14,282 nt of DNA, taken from positions 1 through 14,282 of the forward strand of contig JBDRFE010000020.1 in assembly GCA_043819075.1 (NCBI GenBank). The letters run 5' to 3'. Both the position numbers and the translations under genes were made by a program. The notes under the pieces are model-generated. The model made no database searches, was not told the DNA's origin, and saw only the letters and a program-made list of their open reading frames with translations. Shown here in pieces: positions 1,830 through 12,122 of the stretch; position 1 is the first letter of the stretch, and every line of letters begins with the position of its first letter. Origin of the DNA: an archaeon (lineage in GTDB: Archaea; Iainarchaeota; Iainarchaeia; Iainarchaeales; 1-14-0-10-31-34).

Positions 1830-1899
1830 AGGCAATGATGAGGTTAACACCGGCTGATTCCTGAAAAGGAAAATGAAGATTTAACTCAACACTGAGCCT
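1830..1899 (+). ncRNA. Archaeal box C/D 2'-O-methylation guide sRNA (double guide)
   Basis: Terminal stem AGGC(1830-1833)/GCCT(1896-1899); box C ATGATGA 1835-1841; 12-nt guide 1842-1853; box D' CTGA 1854-1857; TTCCT-GAAA-AGGAA hairpin 1858-1871; box C' ATGAAGA 1873-1879; 12-nt guide 1880-1891; box D CTGA 1892-1895. Confidence 0.92.
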
Positions 1900-2010
1900 A
1901 AACCTTTTTTTGAAAAAAAGGTTTAACAAAAAAGCAAACTTTTTTGCAAAAAGTTTGAACAAAAACAAATTTTAATAAAAGTTTGATCAAAAACTTAAAG
2001 GTTCAACAAA
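1899..2010. repeat. Tandem degenerate palindromic AT-rich repeats
   Basis: TAAACC-T7-G-A7-GGTTTA (1899-1925), CAAACTTTTT-TGC-AAAAAGTTTG (1935-1957) and an imperfect third palindrome (1966-1985). Each is followed by a short ..CAAAAA tail. A fourth partial unit lies near 1997-2010. Confidence 0.6.
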
Positions 2011-2031
2011 AGTACGGCATAAAGCCGTACT
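2011..2031 (-). terminator. GC-rich hairpin between convergent transcription units
   Basis: AGTACGGC-ATAAA-GCCGTACT perfect 8-bp stem, 10 nt past the stop of 2042..2362 and followed by TTTG on the minus strand. Confidence 0.5.
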
Positions 2032-3672: not shown

Positions 3673-4392
3673 ATGGAATTCAAGTCAAAAATTCTTGGAA
3701 TAGAAAAATGTGCTGATGAAAAAAACTGTTTTCAGATAATGAAATTTGAAAAACCAAAAGATTTTTCTTTTAAGCCAGGGCAGTTCCTAATGATTTCAGC
3801 GGATGATTTCAAATTAAGAGGCAACCCAATGCAATTAAAATGGAGTTCTTTTTCCATTGCAAGCTCTCCTTTTCAGGAGCACCTTGAGTTATGCATTAGG
3901 CTTTTAGACACTGATGGCTTAACAAACCATTTAGGAAAAAAATCCCGGGGAGAAAAAGTAAACTTCAAAGGCCCTTTTGGAAACTTTTTCTTAAACAATG
4001 AATTCAAGGAAATTGCTTTTGTTGCTTTAGGAACAGGAATTGCTCCATTGATTTCAATGATTCGCTCTTTACTGCATCAAAATGATTCAAGGCCTATTAC
4101 CCTGTTTTATGGTTTTAGGAACAGGTGCTGTTTTTTGTATCAAAAGGAATTAACTGACTTGCAGGAAAAACACAAAAACTTTAAATTGAATTTTATTGCA
4201 AGCGACCCTGAACAAGGCTGGAATGCACCAAAAGGCTTTGTCCAGGACTTAATTGAAAAAGCAGTTTTTTCTGTTCCAAAAACCGAAGTTGATTTCTATT
4301 TGTGCGGCCTTCCAAAAATTCTTGACTCAATCAAAGAATTTTTACTAGAAAAAGGCTTTAGCGAAGACAAAATCTTTTATGAAAAATGGTGA
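3673..4392 (+). CDS. Ferredoxin-NADP reductase-like FAD/NAD(P)-binding oxidoreductase
   Basis: FKPGQF, SFSIASSP, KGPFGNF, GTGIAPLISM, LFYGFR, FYLCG.P and terminal EKW. Start moved to ATG 3673 to avoid overlapping dcd. Confidence 0.88.
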   Translation: MEFKSKILGIEKCADEKNCFQIMKFEKPKDFSFKPGQFLMISADDFKLRGNPMQLKWSSFSIASSPFQEHLELCIRLLDTDGLTNHLGKKSRGEKVNFKGPFGNFFLNNEFKEIAFVALGTGIAPLISMIRSLLHQNDSRPITLFYGFRNRCCFLYQKELTDLQEKHKNFKLNFIASDPEQGWNAPKGFVQDLIEKAVFSVPKTEVDFYLCGLPKILDSIKEFLLEKGFSEDKIFYEKW

Positions 4393-4394
4393 CA

Positions 4395-4505
4395 GCCTTT
4401 TCCAAAAGGCAAGTAACGCTTTCGCGCGTTAGTGACGACGCACGGGATAAACCCGTGCTAGCACAACTGAAAGTTGTGCCTCGTTGCTCGCGAGCGAAAT
4501 CGCGA
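4395..4505. other. GC-rich multi-hairpin structured intergenic element (candidate ncRNA or REP-like DNA element)
   Basis: Five hairpins plus a closing stem that forms a three-way junction, between convergent genes in an AT-rich background (see findings). Confidence 0.65.
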
Positions 4506-4507
4506 TT

Positions 4508-4744
4508 TTAATCTTTCCATTTGTGTTCTGGATTCCTTGGAATAATAATCCAGGCAATAACATACAACAGTATTCCTGAACCCCAGACAAAAACTGATGC
4601 AACCCATAAAAGCCTTATTAACACTGGGTCAACTTTCAGGTATTCTGCTATTCCCCCGCAGACTCCGCCCAAAATTTTTTCTTTTCCAGAACGGTAAAGC
4701 CTTTTGAATTCAGGTTCTTCTTTTTTTTCTTTTTTTCCTGCCAC
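4508..4744 (-). CDS. PspC domain-containing membrane protein
   Basis: KRLYRS..EKILGGVCGGIAEYL.VDP.LIRL...TM...LYVIAWIIIP is the PspC signature. GTG at 4744 behind GGGGA is chosen as start because the 4810 start overlaps tdh. Confidence 0.88.
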   Translation of the reverse strand: MAGKKEKKEEPEFKRLYRSGKEKILGGVCGGIAEYLKVDPVLIRLLWVASVFVWGSGILLYVIAWIIIPRNPEHKWKD

Positions 4745-4782
4745 GAATTCTTTCCCCTTTTCTTTTTCTTTTATTCCTGTGC

Positions 4783-5805
4783 CTAAGGGATTAAAACTAT
4801 TTTCCCGCATTTCCCTGTCTTGATTAACTCAAATGCTTTCTCAAATTCTTCTAACTTGAATTTATGCGTTATTATTTTGCTTAAATCAAAGCCTTTTTTT
4901 TGGACTTCAGCAACTTTTTCCCATGACTCAAACAATTTTCTTCCGTTAATTCCTTTGATATTAGCTGACTTGAATACAATGGAATTATTTATGTCGATTG
5001 AAACATCGTTTGGGAACACTCCGAGAATTGCAACATTTCCTCCGCCTCTTAATGATTCAAATCCTGCTTTCAATGAAGCTTCGTGCCCAGAAATTTCAAG
5101 AAAAACGTCTACCCCTCTTGTTGTTTCTTTTAAAAGCACTTCAACCGGATTCTCTTTTTTTGCGTTAATTATTTTTGTTGCGCCAAGTTTTTCAGCCATT
5201 TCCAGCCTAAAAGGATTAACGTCTACTGCAAAAATTTTTTTTGCTCCAATCATTTTGCATAACATTATTGCGCATAATCCAATCGGCCCGCAGCCGAAAA
5301 CTGAAACAGTTTTATCTTTTATTTCCTGTGAAAAAACAGTGTGCACTGCATTGCCTAACGGCTCCTGTGCTGTTGCAATTTCGTGCGGGATTTTTTTGTC
5401 GTTTTTTATTGCATTTTTTTCTGGTATTGCAATATATTCTGCAAAACTACCGTTAGTGTCAACTCCAAGTATTTTCAGGTTTTCGCATATGTGGGCGTTT
5501 CCAATCCTGCATTGAAAGCAGGTAAAATCAGCCAAGTGTGTTTCACCTGAAACATGGTCTCCTATTTCAATGCTTTCAACTAATTCACCTTTTTCAATTA
5601 CTTCTCCTGAAAACTCGTGGCCGAAAATCATCGGAGTCTTGATTCTTGTTTCAGCCCAGTGGTCCCATTCAAAAATATGGACATCTGTTCCGCAGATACT
5701 GCATGCCTTGATTTTAACCAACACATCTTTTGGGCCTATCTGAGGAATATCAGTTTCTTTTAGTTCAGCGCCTTTTTTTGGCTCTGACTTGAATAAAGCC
5801 TTCAT
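4783..5805 (-). CDS. tdh: L-threonine 3-dehydrogenase (Zn-dependent MDR family)
   Basis: SICGTDVHIFEWD.WA, GHEFSG, GETH, QEPLGNAVHT, GCGPIG, GINGR, GKCGKIVL; adjacent to kbl. Start MKAL at 5805 (5817 also possible). Confidence 0.93.
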   Translation of the reverse strand: MKALFKSEPKKGAELKETDIPQIGPKDVLVKIKACSICGTDVHIFEWDHWAETRIKTPMIFGHEFSGEVIEKGELVESIEIGDHVSGETHLADFTCFQCRIGNAHICENLKILGVDTNGSFAEYIAIPEKNAIKNDKKIPHEIATAQEPLGNAVHTVFSQEIKDKTVSVFGCGPIGLCAIMLCKMIGAKKIFAVDVNPFRLEMAEKLGATKIINAKKENPVEVLLKETTRGVDVFLEISGHEASLKAGFESLRGGGNVAILGVFPNDVSIDINNSIVFKSANIKGINGRKLFESWEKVAEVQKKGFDLSKIITHKFKLEEFEKAFELIKTGKCGKIVLIP

Positions 5806-9808: not shown

Positions 9809-10117
9809 CTGATTAAATTAAGTCTTTCTGGTATTTAATTTTTTCTTCTGTTTTTATTAATTTGATGCAGTCCAAAAGCAAAAACATTTTTTGTTGCGCA
9901 AGCCAAGAAATCCAAACAAGCCTCTTATTAGGGACGTCTTTACATATATATGTCATGGAATCAACTGATTTTTTGGGGAAAAAATAATGGACAGCCAGTT
10001 TACTAGAATGAGGAACAGGTCGCTTGCTTTTTCTCCTGAAAAACGTAAAAAAGAGGACCGCAAGAACAGCCTTCTCTTAAGATCAATTTCAATCTGATTT
10101 TAGGTTATTGAAAAAAT

Positions 10118-10135
10118 TTCCGCCTCTTGGGTTTG
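10118..10135 (-). repeat. Degenerate tRNA 3'-end copy (att-like), most distal
   Basis: TTCCGCCTCTTGGGTTTG, 14/18 identical to 14265-14282. Confidence 0.7.
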
Positions 10136-10148
10136 CACAGGAAACTCT

Positions 10149-10277
10149 TTATAATTCTGCTAATTCATTATAGAATGCTTTGTATTTTTTTAGATCTTCT
10201 TCGACTATTTTTTTTATGTCTTTCCATTCTGCCATTGTTATTGGCTCTCTTTTTCCTTTGATTTTTATTTTTTTCAT
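10149..10277 (-). CDS. 42-aa putative antitoxin for the Doc toxin (absent from the ORF track)
   Basis: Hand-translated MKKIKIKGKREPITMAEWKDIKKIVEEDLKKYKAFYNELAEL*. ATG is 4 nt after the doc stop. Amphipathic helical C-terminus. Confidence 0.72.
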   Translation of the reverse strand: MKKIKIKGKREPITMAEWKDIKKIVEEDLKKYKAFYNELAEL

Positions 10278-10281
10278 TTTA

Positions 10282-10644
10282 TCAGCCCTTTCTTGTGTGG
10301 TTTGCAATCCATGTAACTATTTCGTCTAATCGTGTTTTTGGTTTTACTGACCACACCACTACATTAAATCTTGATGTTTCGCCAACCTTTAATTCTTTTC
10401 CATTCAACTTCAAGAAGGCAGTCATTGCCTGAAATGCTGTTCTTTTGTTTCCGTCTGCAAAAGCGTGCCTTCTTGCAATATCCATTAGTAAAGTTGCTGC
10501 CTTTCTGTCTATTCCTCTTGTGTTTGCCACCTTGAAAACAATATGGTCTAAATCTCCTTCGTTTCTAATTATTCCTTTGTCAAATTTTTTGTTTATTTCG
10601 ATTATTGCTTCTTTTGAAAGTGTTTTTGCATAAATCCTTGCCAT
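10282..10644 (-). CDS. doc: Doc/Fic family (death-on-curing) toxin
   Basis: HAFADGNKRTA Doc motif, GIIRNEGDL, KAA.LL..I. Start MARIY at 10644 lies about 25 nt below a TTTAAA box. Confidence 0.9.
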   Translation of the reverse strand: MARIYAKTLSKEAIIEINKKFDKGIIRNEGDLDHIVFKVANTRGIDRKAATLLMDIARRHAFADGNKRTAFQAMTAFLKLNGKELKVGETSRFNVVVWSVKPKTRLDEIVTWIANHTRKG

Positions 10645-10647
10645 GCA

Positions 10648-10672
10648 TAAATTCTGTAAATTACAGAATTTA
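10648..10672. promoter_or_regulatory. Perfect 12-bp inverted repeat (operator) over the doc promoter
   Basis: TAAATTCTGTAA-A-TTACAGAATTTA overlapping TTTAAA (10669-10674). Confidence 0.7.
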
Positions 10673-10702
10673 AACATATTGTTTTTCAGCTAAAAATAGG
10701 GT

Positions 10703-10720
10703 TCCCGTCTCCTGGATTTG
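10703..10720 (-). repeat. Degenerate tRNA 3'-end copy (att-like)
   Basis: TCCCGTCTCCTGGATTTG, 16/18 identical to 14265-14282. Confidence 0.85.
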
Positions 10721-10767
10721 AGAAAAGGTTCTTGGTTTGGGGTTGGAAGTGTGGAGTTTTTCACATC

Positions 10768-11049
10768 TTATCTCCTGTACATATCATCGTGATGGCCAAA
10801 TTTATCAAACATGATGAAATTTTTTTCTTTGAATACTTTAAAAAAGAGCACAAAGCTTTTTGCTACGTGAACTCTTTTGTATTCTTTTAAATCATATTGC
10901 ATATTTTTGTAATGGTCAATTGTTATCTCATCTGAATTAGCTATTTGCTTGATCTTTTTATTAAGTATTTCCACGGTCTTTTTGTCTTTTTTTGCCAGCA
11001 CTCTGATTGTGGCTTTCAATTCATCTGAAAGGTCAAATGAAAAAGGCAT
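10768..11049 (-). CDS. RelE/YafQ-superfamily type II toxin
   Basis: 93 aa, basic; HYKNM.YDLKEYKRVHV.KSFVL.F....FGHHDDMY; abuts the upstream antitoxin (TGA ATG). Confidence 0.85.
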   Translation of the reverse strand: MPFSFDLSDELKATIRVLAKKDKKTVEILNKKIKQIANSDEITIDHYKNMQYDLKEYKRVHVAKSFVLFFKVFKEKNFIMFDKFGHHDDMYRR

Positions 11050-11313
11050 TCATTCGCCTCTGCATAGCTTGTCTAATTCTTTTATGCTCATTTTTCTGAA
11101 GCCGTATTTCTTGATATGTCTGTCACAAGATTCAATCACTTCTCTGATTACCTCTTCTTTGACTTCTTTATCAACAAATTCGTCTCCATACATTTCAGCA
11201 AACTTGTCTAATGCCTCTCCTTTGTCATTTAACCCATATTTTTCCTTAACCACACCAAGCACTCTGCTTGTATAATCATCTATTTTAACATTTATAGAAA
11301 CAGTTTTGCCCAT
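11050..11313 (-). CDS. Antitoxin with N-terminal ribbon-helix-helix-like domain (DUF2683-like)
   Basis: VSINVKIDDYTSRVLGVVKEKYGLNDKGEALDKF then an acidic segment; AGGTGA RBS at 11320-11325; directly upstream of the RelE-like toxin. Confidence 0.8.
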   Translation of the reverse strand: MGKTVSINVKIDDYTSRVLGVVKEKYGLNDKGEALDKFAEMYGDEFVDKEVKEEVIREVIESCDRHIKKYGFRKMSIKELDKLCRGE

Positions 11314-11332
11314 ATAACTTCACCTAATATAG

Positions 11333-11355
11333 AATTAGTTAAACTAATTTATAAA
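11333..11355 (-). promoter_or_regulatory. Inverted-repeat operator plus TATA box of the antitoxin-RelE operon
   Basis: AATTAGTT-A-AACTAATT (11333-11349) abutting TTTATAAA (11348-11355). Confidence 0.65.
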
Positions 11356-11391
11356 CCTTGCCGTCCAGCGTTCCTTTTTCTGAAGAAAAAT

Positions 11392-11409
11392 TCCCGCCTC
11401 AAGGATTTG
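11392..11409 (-). repeat. Degenerate tRNA 3'-end copy (att-like)
   Basis: TCCCGCCTCAAGGATTTG, 16/18 identical to 14265-14282. Confidence 0.85.
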
Positions 11410-11451
11410 CAATTGGGTTGTGGGAGGTTGGATGTTTGAGGTTTGGAGTTT

Positions 11452-11802
11452 TCAGAGTTCATATAATTCCTTTATTTTTTGTTTTACTTCTTTGAGTTTT
11501 TGTTTTGAAATTTTTCCAATTTTGGTTTCTATTAGTTTCTTATAAACTGTTACTGGGTTGTCGGTCATTATTTGGCTTTCAGTTTTTAGTTGTCCATTTT
11601 CTAAATCTTTTGAAGTTAGTAAAACATCGTATTTTGTTTTGCTTCCTCTGGAGGTTATCTTAAACAAGATTAAGTCATCAGATTCTCTGTTAAATTTTGA
11701 ATTGCTTATAACTAATGCAGGTCTTCTTTTCACTCCAATTTGTTCCGAGAACATTAGGTCAGCTACAACAAGGTCTCCTTGTTCAAAATTCAAAGAGTTC
11801 AT
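11452..11802 (-). CDS. mazF: MazF/PemK family endoribonuclease toxin
   Basis: [14 protein letters not shown]....[27 protein letters not shown]. Confidence 0.9.
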
Positions 11803-11986
11803 GTGCGTCTTCTCCTTCTTCTGCCCATCTCTTGTAAGCGTAAAGTCTTAATGGGTCTTTTTCTGATTCAAGCAACTTGGCTTTTTCTTCTATTGCTTTT
11901 CTTGCTATTTCAGTCCACTTAATTTCAGAATGCTTTTTCATAATGTCATGAAGTTCTTTTGGAACAGCCATAGTCATATTAACCAT
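11783..11986 (-). CDS. Ribbon-helix-helix antitoxin
   Basis: [35 protein letters not shown] pattern with an acidic C-terminus; overlaps the mazF start by 20 nt; AAGGTGG RBS near 11991-11997. Confidence 0.82.
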
Positions 11987-12054
11987 TTAACCACCTTAAA
12001 TAAGTAAAATAAGTAAAGTTGTTAAAGTTATCTTTCACTTGGCGTGATTGGAAT

Positions 12055-12102
12055 TCCCGCCTCCCAACACCGTTCTACGGGTGCAAGTCCCGCCGATTTT
12101 TG
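12055..12102 (-). repeat. Split/duplicated degenerate tRNA 3'-end copies (att-like)
   Basis: TCCCGCCTCCC (12055-12065, 11/11 match to 14265-14275) and TCCCGCC-GATTT (12088-12099). Confidence 0.7.
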
Positions 12103-12122
12103 GTAAAATGCTTCTTTTTTTT

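Follow-up and report, generated by a model that had tools for sequence, protein, structure and literature searches.

The locus raises the question of what occupies the narrow gap between two convergent genes in an archaeal genome of 1.24 Mb (G+C 34.6%, completeness 90.55%). In the window, by which we mean the whole stretch of 14,282 nucleotides that was analyzed, 115 bases separate the two stop codons, and a densely structured element (4395-4505) takes up 111 of them. Based on the present data, this element is probably one complete doublet plus an accessory hairpin of a dispersed, modular and polar hairpin repeat that is maintained and spread at the level of DNA and belongs to Iainarchaeota-like DPANN archaea. 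The family is apparently an unpublished, REP-like archaeal repeat, as no description of it was found in the literature open without subscription, mostly titles and the first parts of abstracts. The features concerned are the following.

3673..4392, plus strand: FAD/NAD-binding oxidoreductase gene, flanking and outside the element (Pfam NAD_binding_1, E 3.6e-24, and FAD_binding_6)
4395..4410, plus strand: H1, an accessory AT-rich hairpin module of the same repeat family, starting 2 nt past the oxidoreductase stop
4414..4458, plus strand: left half-unit, with outer hairpin H2 (4414-4431), 8-nt linker (4432-4439) and inner hairpin H3 (4440-4458)
4459..4460, no strand: central TA between the two inverted half-units
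4461..4505, minus strand: right half-unit, inverted, with inner hairpin H4 (4461-4479), linker (4480-4487) and outer hairpin H5 (4488-4505), which lies 2 nt from the pspC stop
4508..4810, minus strand: gene for a PspC-domain protein, flanking, convergent and outside the element (Pfam PspC, E 2.1e-25)
1899..2030, plus strand: second array of the family in the window, made of AT-rich hairpins and an inner hairpin (2012-2030)

The first-pass annotation had described H1, H2, a closing stem, twin hairpins and H5, and all of these helices were recovered from the sequence at the positions given; for H1 the coordinates hold, but the proposed 7-bp stem with a 2-nt loop folds as 6 bp with a 4-nt loop. 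The closing stem (4432-4438/4481-4487) indeed has 7 bp, with two G-U pairs on the plus strand, and the loops of H2 and H5 are exact reverse complements. The plus strand of 4395-4505, folded as RNA, has a minimum free energy of -53.4 kcal/mol (z -6.18) that none of 200 shuffles equalled, more structure than chance would provide. The corresponding structure is the long-range alternative that had been suggested, in which H2 and H5 are opened and paired to each other; the three-way-junction fold first proposed reaches -49.6 and five separate hairpins reach -44.5. The minus strand also folds well as RNA (-47.6, z -3.82), and in DNA folding the two strands are nearly equal (-34.8 versus -33.3). An Rfam scan of the window, which the annotation had called for, listed 14 matches at E 10 or lower; none of them overlaps 4395-4505, in agreement with the lack of a recognizable RNA family noted there. 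Contigs of run X1 span both sides of the site and overlap at 4456-4482, so that a mis-join confined to this assembly does not explain the site; the assembly may, however, derive from X1.

The feature is thus real, but the unit had been drawn wrongly, and the interpretation given to it is supported in part. The repeating unit is a half-unit in which an 8-nt linker separates an outer hairpin (6-bp stem; pyrimidine-rich loop of 6-7 nt) from an inner one (7-bp stem beginning with GYRC, 5-nt loop mostly RTAAA). Positions 4414-4505 comprise two such half-units, each of 45 nt in this copy, joined in inverted orientation at the central TA, H1 being a further module. The left half-unit aligns without gaps to 26 others, and the resulting set of 27, picked for having both hairpins, is the basis of covariance model R1; the left and right halves of this copy score 65.4 and 61.8 bits (the latter on the minus strand), both being training sequences of R1 themselves. 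Across this alignment 349 of 351 cells are paired, with 102 double-sided changes and a single G-U pair, counts that are inflated by kin. Among 73 inner hairpins chosen by their fixed letters, without a pairing filter, 356 of 365 pairs are Watson-Crick, the remainder being 6 A.C, 1 G.T and 2 others. Such scarcity of wobble pairs amid heavy change suggests a structure that has to form on either strand, that is, in DNA. The stem mismatches lean 6:1 towards one strand, which is not significant; we regard this as a faint hint of strand-specific folding and a weak point against full strand symmetry.

The manner in which halves are combined was read from 39 doublets, 19 from this genome and 20 from named loci elsewhere, 29 of which have both outer hairpins; 12 bacterial pattern matches had been left out as chance before doublets and anchored hairpins were counted. 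Of the 48 inner hairpins of this genome, 31 have a TA behind them, nearly always as the link to a second inner hairpin. The ends of a doublet are inverted in architecture and not in sequence, the two halves being no more alike than random ones, and inner hairpins of the same doublet never share their variable stem triplet (0/39 versus 4.8 expected, p ~0.008). This indicates that doublets are put together from independent halves and that perfect palindromes of 40 bp disappear, either from the cell or during assembly; the missing identical halves could thus be an assembly artefact. We had considered fold-back duplication as the origin of the doublets, which was rejected because the halves are never identical.

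The two halves of a doublet are inverses of each other, and any meeting of similar halves therefore makes their outer loops and linkers complementary. Exact loop complementarity was found in 2 of the 29 doublets versus 3.2 expected, so that the proposed kissing loop is not conserved, and linker pairing amounts to 3.28 of 8 positions versus 3.17 of 8 in shuffled pairs (p 0.35), so that the three-way-junction stem is not conserved either. In this copy the linkers pair at 7 of 8 positions; only 6 of the 39 doublets pair as well. Kissing loop and junction stem are therefore by-products of inversion and not conserved RNA design. The conserved parts are the two local stems and their spacing, not the junction or the loop complementarity.

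The search for further copies that had been recommended returned 40 loci in this genome (nhmmer, E<=3), and the anchor motif occurs 41 times as compared to 0.2 times in shuffles. Matches to R1 number 75 in this genome, 12-61 in five congeners and 1-3 in each of three other genera of the same family; at E<=0.01 at least one match is present in 52 of 151 genomes of the phylum, mostly weak outside the genus. The same layout was seen outside the genus in 10 readable loci of 13, seven of them at tRNA ends or introns. The exact doublet pattern has 32 matches in genome_contigs, of which 20 are archaeal, all with 7/7 or 7/6 stems, and 12 bacterial, never with both stems >=6; it has none in the viral contigs. 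The five archaeal genomes concerned are titled Iainarchaeum, Diapherotrites, Micrarchaeota and, in two cases, archaeon. A module-like match within a 2483-aa ORF on C22 was rejected as chance coding sequence. The H1 module recurs in the same genome at C33:4235, C68:8714, C41:8597 and C2:103060 and adjoins pspC in one congener (L016), and the combination of H1, H2 and H3 is repeated at C33:1324 and C5:2116. The second array in the window has a weak R1 match at 2014-2028 (E 0.023).

Some neighbouring features were recorded as well. A C/D-box-like RNA at 1835-1895 of the window is followed directly by the hairpin array at 1899-2030, and in a paralogue of this RNA at C35:11400-11560 inserted family modules separate the D' box from the C' box, while a half-unit lies at the 3' end; no target was found. 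Further along, 10282-11986 holds small toxin-antitoxin-like genes (Fic, PemK/MazF and two unnamed pairs), flanked by GC-rich stretches (9809-10281, 11314-11451 and 11987-12122) with the common motif CCCGCCTC.

The half-units are polar with respect to their surroundings. We called an outer hairpin abutting when its edge lay -8 to +4 nt from a feature end, using ARAGORN tRNAs and simple ORF calls. The outer edge touches a feature end in 21 of 77 oriented outer hairpins, as compared to 0 of 77 for the inner edge. The abutted features are nine tRNA 3' ends (0.03 at random), five tRNA 5' ends (0.09 at random), six stops (2.1 at random, p ~0.02, a modest enrichment based on crude ORF calls) and one start, in a spurious frame (3.0 at random). 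At tRNA 5' ends the module is antisense, and its orientation is thus set by the DNA boundary rather than by the transcript; the outer-edge polarity at tRNA ends on either strand and at stops points to a polar element at the DNA level. Modules also occupy canonical-position tRNA introns (C30:9049, C59:9814 and C36:2000), and free-lying ones are seen after stops, next to C/D RNAs and RNase P RNA, and in the rRNA spacer.

Individual sites are worth recording here. Doublets lie in the spacer before 23S rRNA and beside RNase P RNA genes among L048, L031 and L046, and the 16S rRNA of L048 has a 102-nt insertion. At C29:35672-35756 a half-unit is translated in frame as the C-terminal tail of a large NrdD chain, and at C2:58903-59562 an array runs in frame upstream of a class III signal-peptide-like motif of a pilin-like ORF. 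ARAGORN calls a tRNA-Ile with a UAU anticodon at C67:12614-12687.

We next turn to the site itself, for which the first-pass annotation had proposed a comparison with orthologous sites. Orthologues of the oxidoreductase are present in all five congeners and those of pspC in three. The order oxidoreductase, C/D RNA, pspC is found in three relatives' loci, and none of them has the doublet: the C/D-box-like RNA stands bare between the genes in L014, is accompanied by AT-rich modules in L025, and in L019 is surrounded by different modules that are pressed on both stop codons. No clean filled/empty pair was found at the strain level, the relatives being ~72% identical in protein, so that neither an insertion boundary nor an excision was seen. 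The C/D-box-like RNA occurs in 5/5 congeners and in 1/3 other genera, and its orientation relative to the oxidoreductase flips among genomes. The conserved RNA (L014:1407-1474, minus strand; also L011, L013, L016, L019, L021, L024, L025, L152 and L155) has a D guide that matches the tRNA(CAU) anticodon loop by complementarity and places its fifth base opposite C34; the RNA is thus a predicted guide for C34 of tRNA-Met, and both the fifth-base rule and this class of target are described for C/D guides in the accessible part of PMC7994747. Its second guide is complementary to the D loop of the same tRNA, and the tRNA(CAU) of this assembly (C30:3425) retains both target sequences. The C/D RNA was not found in this assembly; as the genome is 90.55% complete, it may sit elsewhere, unassembled. 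A selenocysteine insertion element at the end of the oxidoreductase was also considered and is ruled out, as the relatives' genes end with TAG or TAA.

Turnover of slot content is seen in this assembly too. A tRNA cluster is present in two syntenic versions (C2:100780-104118 and C36) with flanks 76-82% identical, yet the two have nothing in common in what lies at the tRNA ends and within the intron, some slots being empty; no target-site duplication is visible, the versions being ~20% diverged. C36 may belong to a contaminating sister species. The earlier suggestion of a non-autonomous hairpin mobile element fits a multi-copy repeat whose slots differ among relatives. Its other suggestion, a novel ncRNA or 3'-UTR element, does not agree with a multi-copy sequence whose RNA-like features are unconserved and which is missing from the orthologous site.

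No dedicated mobiliser was found among the protein families screened, which are listed next. Y1 transposases, present in 56 of 215 genomes of the phylum, are absent from this genome and occur in one of five congeners with flanks of another type, these genomes being incomplete. GIY-YIG genes were found in none of six genomes of this genus, though in 138 of 215 of the phylum, and the five genomes searched for resolvase, reverse transcriptase and IS110 had none of these. The one integrase of this genome is XerA-like. R1 matches 1 of 30 Y1 loci and 2 of 30 GIY-YIG loci, each at a tRNA; four of 30 loci (L129, L130, L131 and L137) have small stand-alone GIY-YIG genes near tRNA-Ser. Two further candidates were dismissed: the sole ORF of this genome with an array on either side is a spurious frame that overlies a tRNA, and a gene between inverted half-units in L072, a locus from another taxonomic family, looks by eye like an FKBP-type isomerase, not a nuclease.

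From these patterns we infer that half-units would be recognized as folded single-stranded or cruciform DNA and copied or swapped between slots by recombination, possibly helped in trans by a putative enzyme. By analogy with REP/RAYT this might be an HUH-type nuclease, or host repair might suffice; we give similar odds to an HUH-type enzyme that acts in trans and escaped the screen and to recombination or repair by the host with no such help. The half-units would also remove the adjoining spacer until a base under selective protection is reached. At the present site each convergent gene would have had its own half-unit facing inward, and the meeting of the two at TA would have eliminated the gene for the C/D guide RNA, which persists between the two genes in relatives; such recombination is the simplest and most likely reading, relocation of the guide gene being possible. 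Transcripts that enter the element would carry its hairpins as a side effect. A bolder version, possible although rather unlikely, is that the repeat represents a new class of polar, structure-recognized mobile DNA whose richest genomes contain no transposase. An unrecognized host or viral enzyme would then act at the outer edge and join unlike halves at TA. The element would in this way pare spacers to essential sequence, seed and refill tRNA introns and be able to delete small RNA genes, the tRNA-Met C/D guide at this site being one.

Selection on RNA offers a different account, in which hairpins after stops protect 3' ends or end transcription from both sides and modules tune tRNA and rRNA processing. 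The spacing of ~2 nt from stops and tRNA ends suits such a domesticated element, as do terminator-like scores on both strands (2 versus 0.7 in shuffles, in a bacterial-type scan) and REPs downstream of genes, which are thought to act as RNA according to the accessible part of PMC3733652. Nevertheless, sense strands carry both orientations (tRNA 5' versus 3' ends), G-U pairs are hardly present despite heavy variation, relatives' slots are empty or hold other modules and copy number ranges from 12 to 75 within one genus, so that we consider this account improbable. A discrete plus-strand ncRNA, perhaps a catalytic one, folded into a three-way junction with kissing loops would explain the strong fold with its two plus-strand G-U pairs and the lack of an Rfam match; it is very improbable in view of the random level of junction pairing and loop complementarity across the 39 doublets, the lack of conservation at the orthologous site and the absence of room for a promoter between the stops.

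Spread could also be RNA-borne: modules would be excised as tRNA introns, become circular, insert at RNA ends or splice sites and then be converted into DNA again, much as has been proposed for introns of Thermoproteales. Modules do fill canonical-position tRNA introns, tRNA ends are the strongest hot spot, and intron transposition is described in the accessible text of PMC4033280. This route nonetheless seems quite improbable, given that none of the five element-rich genomes searched has a reverse transcriptase, that stop codons, as at this site, are not RNA processing sites and that polarity is independent of transcript direction. The DNA-level hairpin repeat remains our preferred reading.

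The origin of archaeal tRNA introns is called open in the accessible part of a 2026 preprint (10.64898/2026.10.13.758758), and a repeat that occurs both in introns and free, and whose grammar is strict and testable, offers a concrete donor for them. A REP-like family without RAYT in its richest genomes raises the question of the mover, and occupation of the site of a conserved tRNA-modification guide implies a possible cost to the host. What this locus adds is the inverted half-unit grammar, the negative kissing-loop test and a likely displaced guide RNA, together with the caution that, in DPANN genomes, hairpins with high stability and covariation can be mistaken for novel ncRNAs.

Several known systems resemble the repeat in part. 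The GC clusters of yeast mitochondria are GC-rich palindromes in AT-rich DNA that spread without an enzyme of their own, and the T-shaped termini of parvoviruses have twin short hairpins side by side with A-rich and T-rich loops. Both are analogies only, and the outer stem of the T-shape is not conserved in the repeat. In Thermoproteales, transposed tRNA introns (Fujishima 2010, as summarized in the accessible part of PMC4033280) share the presence of related sequences in introns of different tRNAs, whereas the modules described here also occur outside introns: after stops, at both ends of tRNAs, next to C/D and RNase P RNA and within the rRNA spacer. The PATEs and SMRs of Haloquadratum walsbyi, as far as the accessible part of PMC3119063 describes them, are likewise archaeal, transposase-free, palindromic elements of 50-110 bp with no target duplication seen and with nested conglomerates, and the mobilization of SMRs is equally unexplained. 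The present repeat differs from PATEs in having no likeness to same-genus IS200/IS605 ends (by eye on the readable Y1 flanks, and with R1 on 30 Y1 loci), and from both in that its halves vary by compensatory change and are not >95% identical and that its targets are RNA-gene ends.

Along with these haloarchaeal elements, the closest known systems are REPINs and BIMEs, the REP doublets mobilized by RAYT. According to the accessible parts of PMC3116915 and PMC3733652, REP doublets too are multi-copy short palindromes outside genes, mostly in inverted pairs with heterodimers common; partners are sometimes 1-2 bp apart, downstream of genes, overlapping stops and occasionally in frame. In contrast to REPs, each half here has two hairpins at a fixed 8-nt spacing, there is no terminal tag (GTAG in 1/27 half-units, CGTC, on either strand and in one place, in <=5/27), no RAYT (a Y1 HUH transposase gene between repeats) is flanked, tRNA ends and introns are the main sites, and the halves of a doublet as a rule do not pair into one long hairpin. 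Because the tests for tag and RAYT failed, we do not file the element as a REP, even though it acts like REP doublets.
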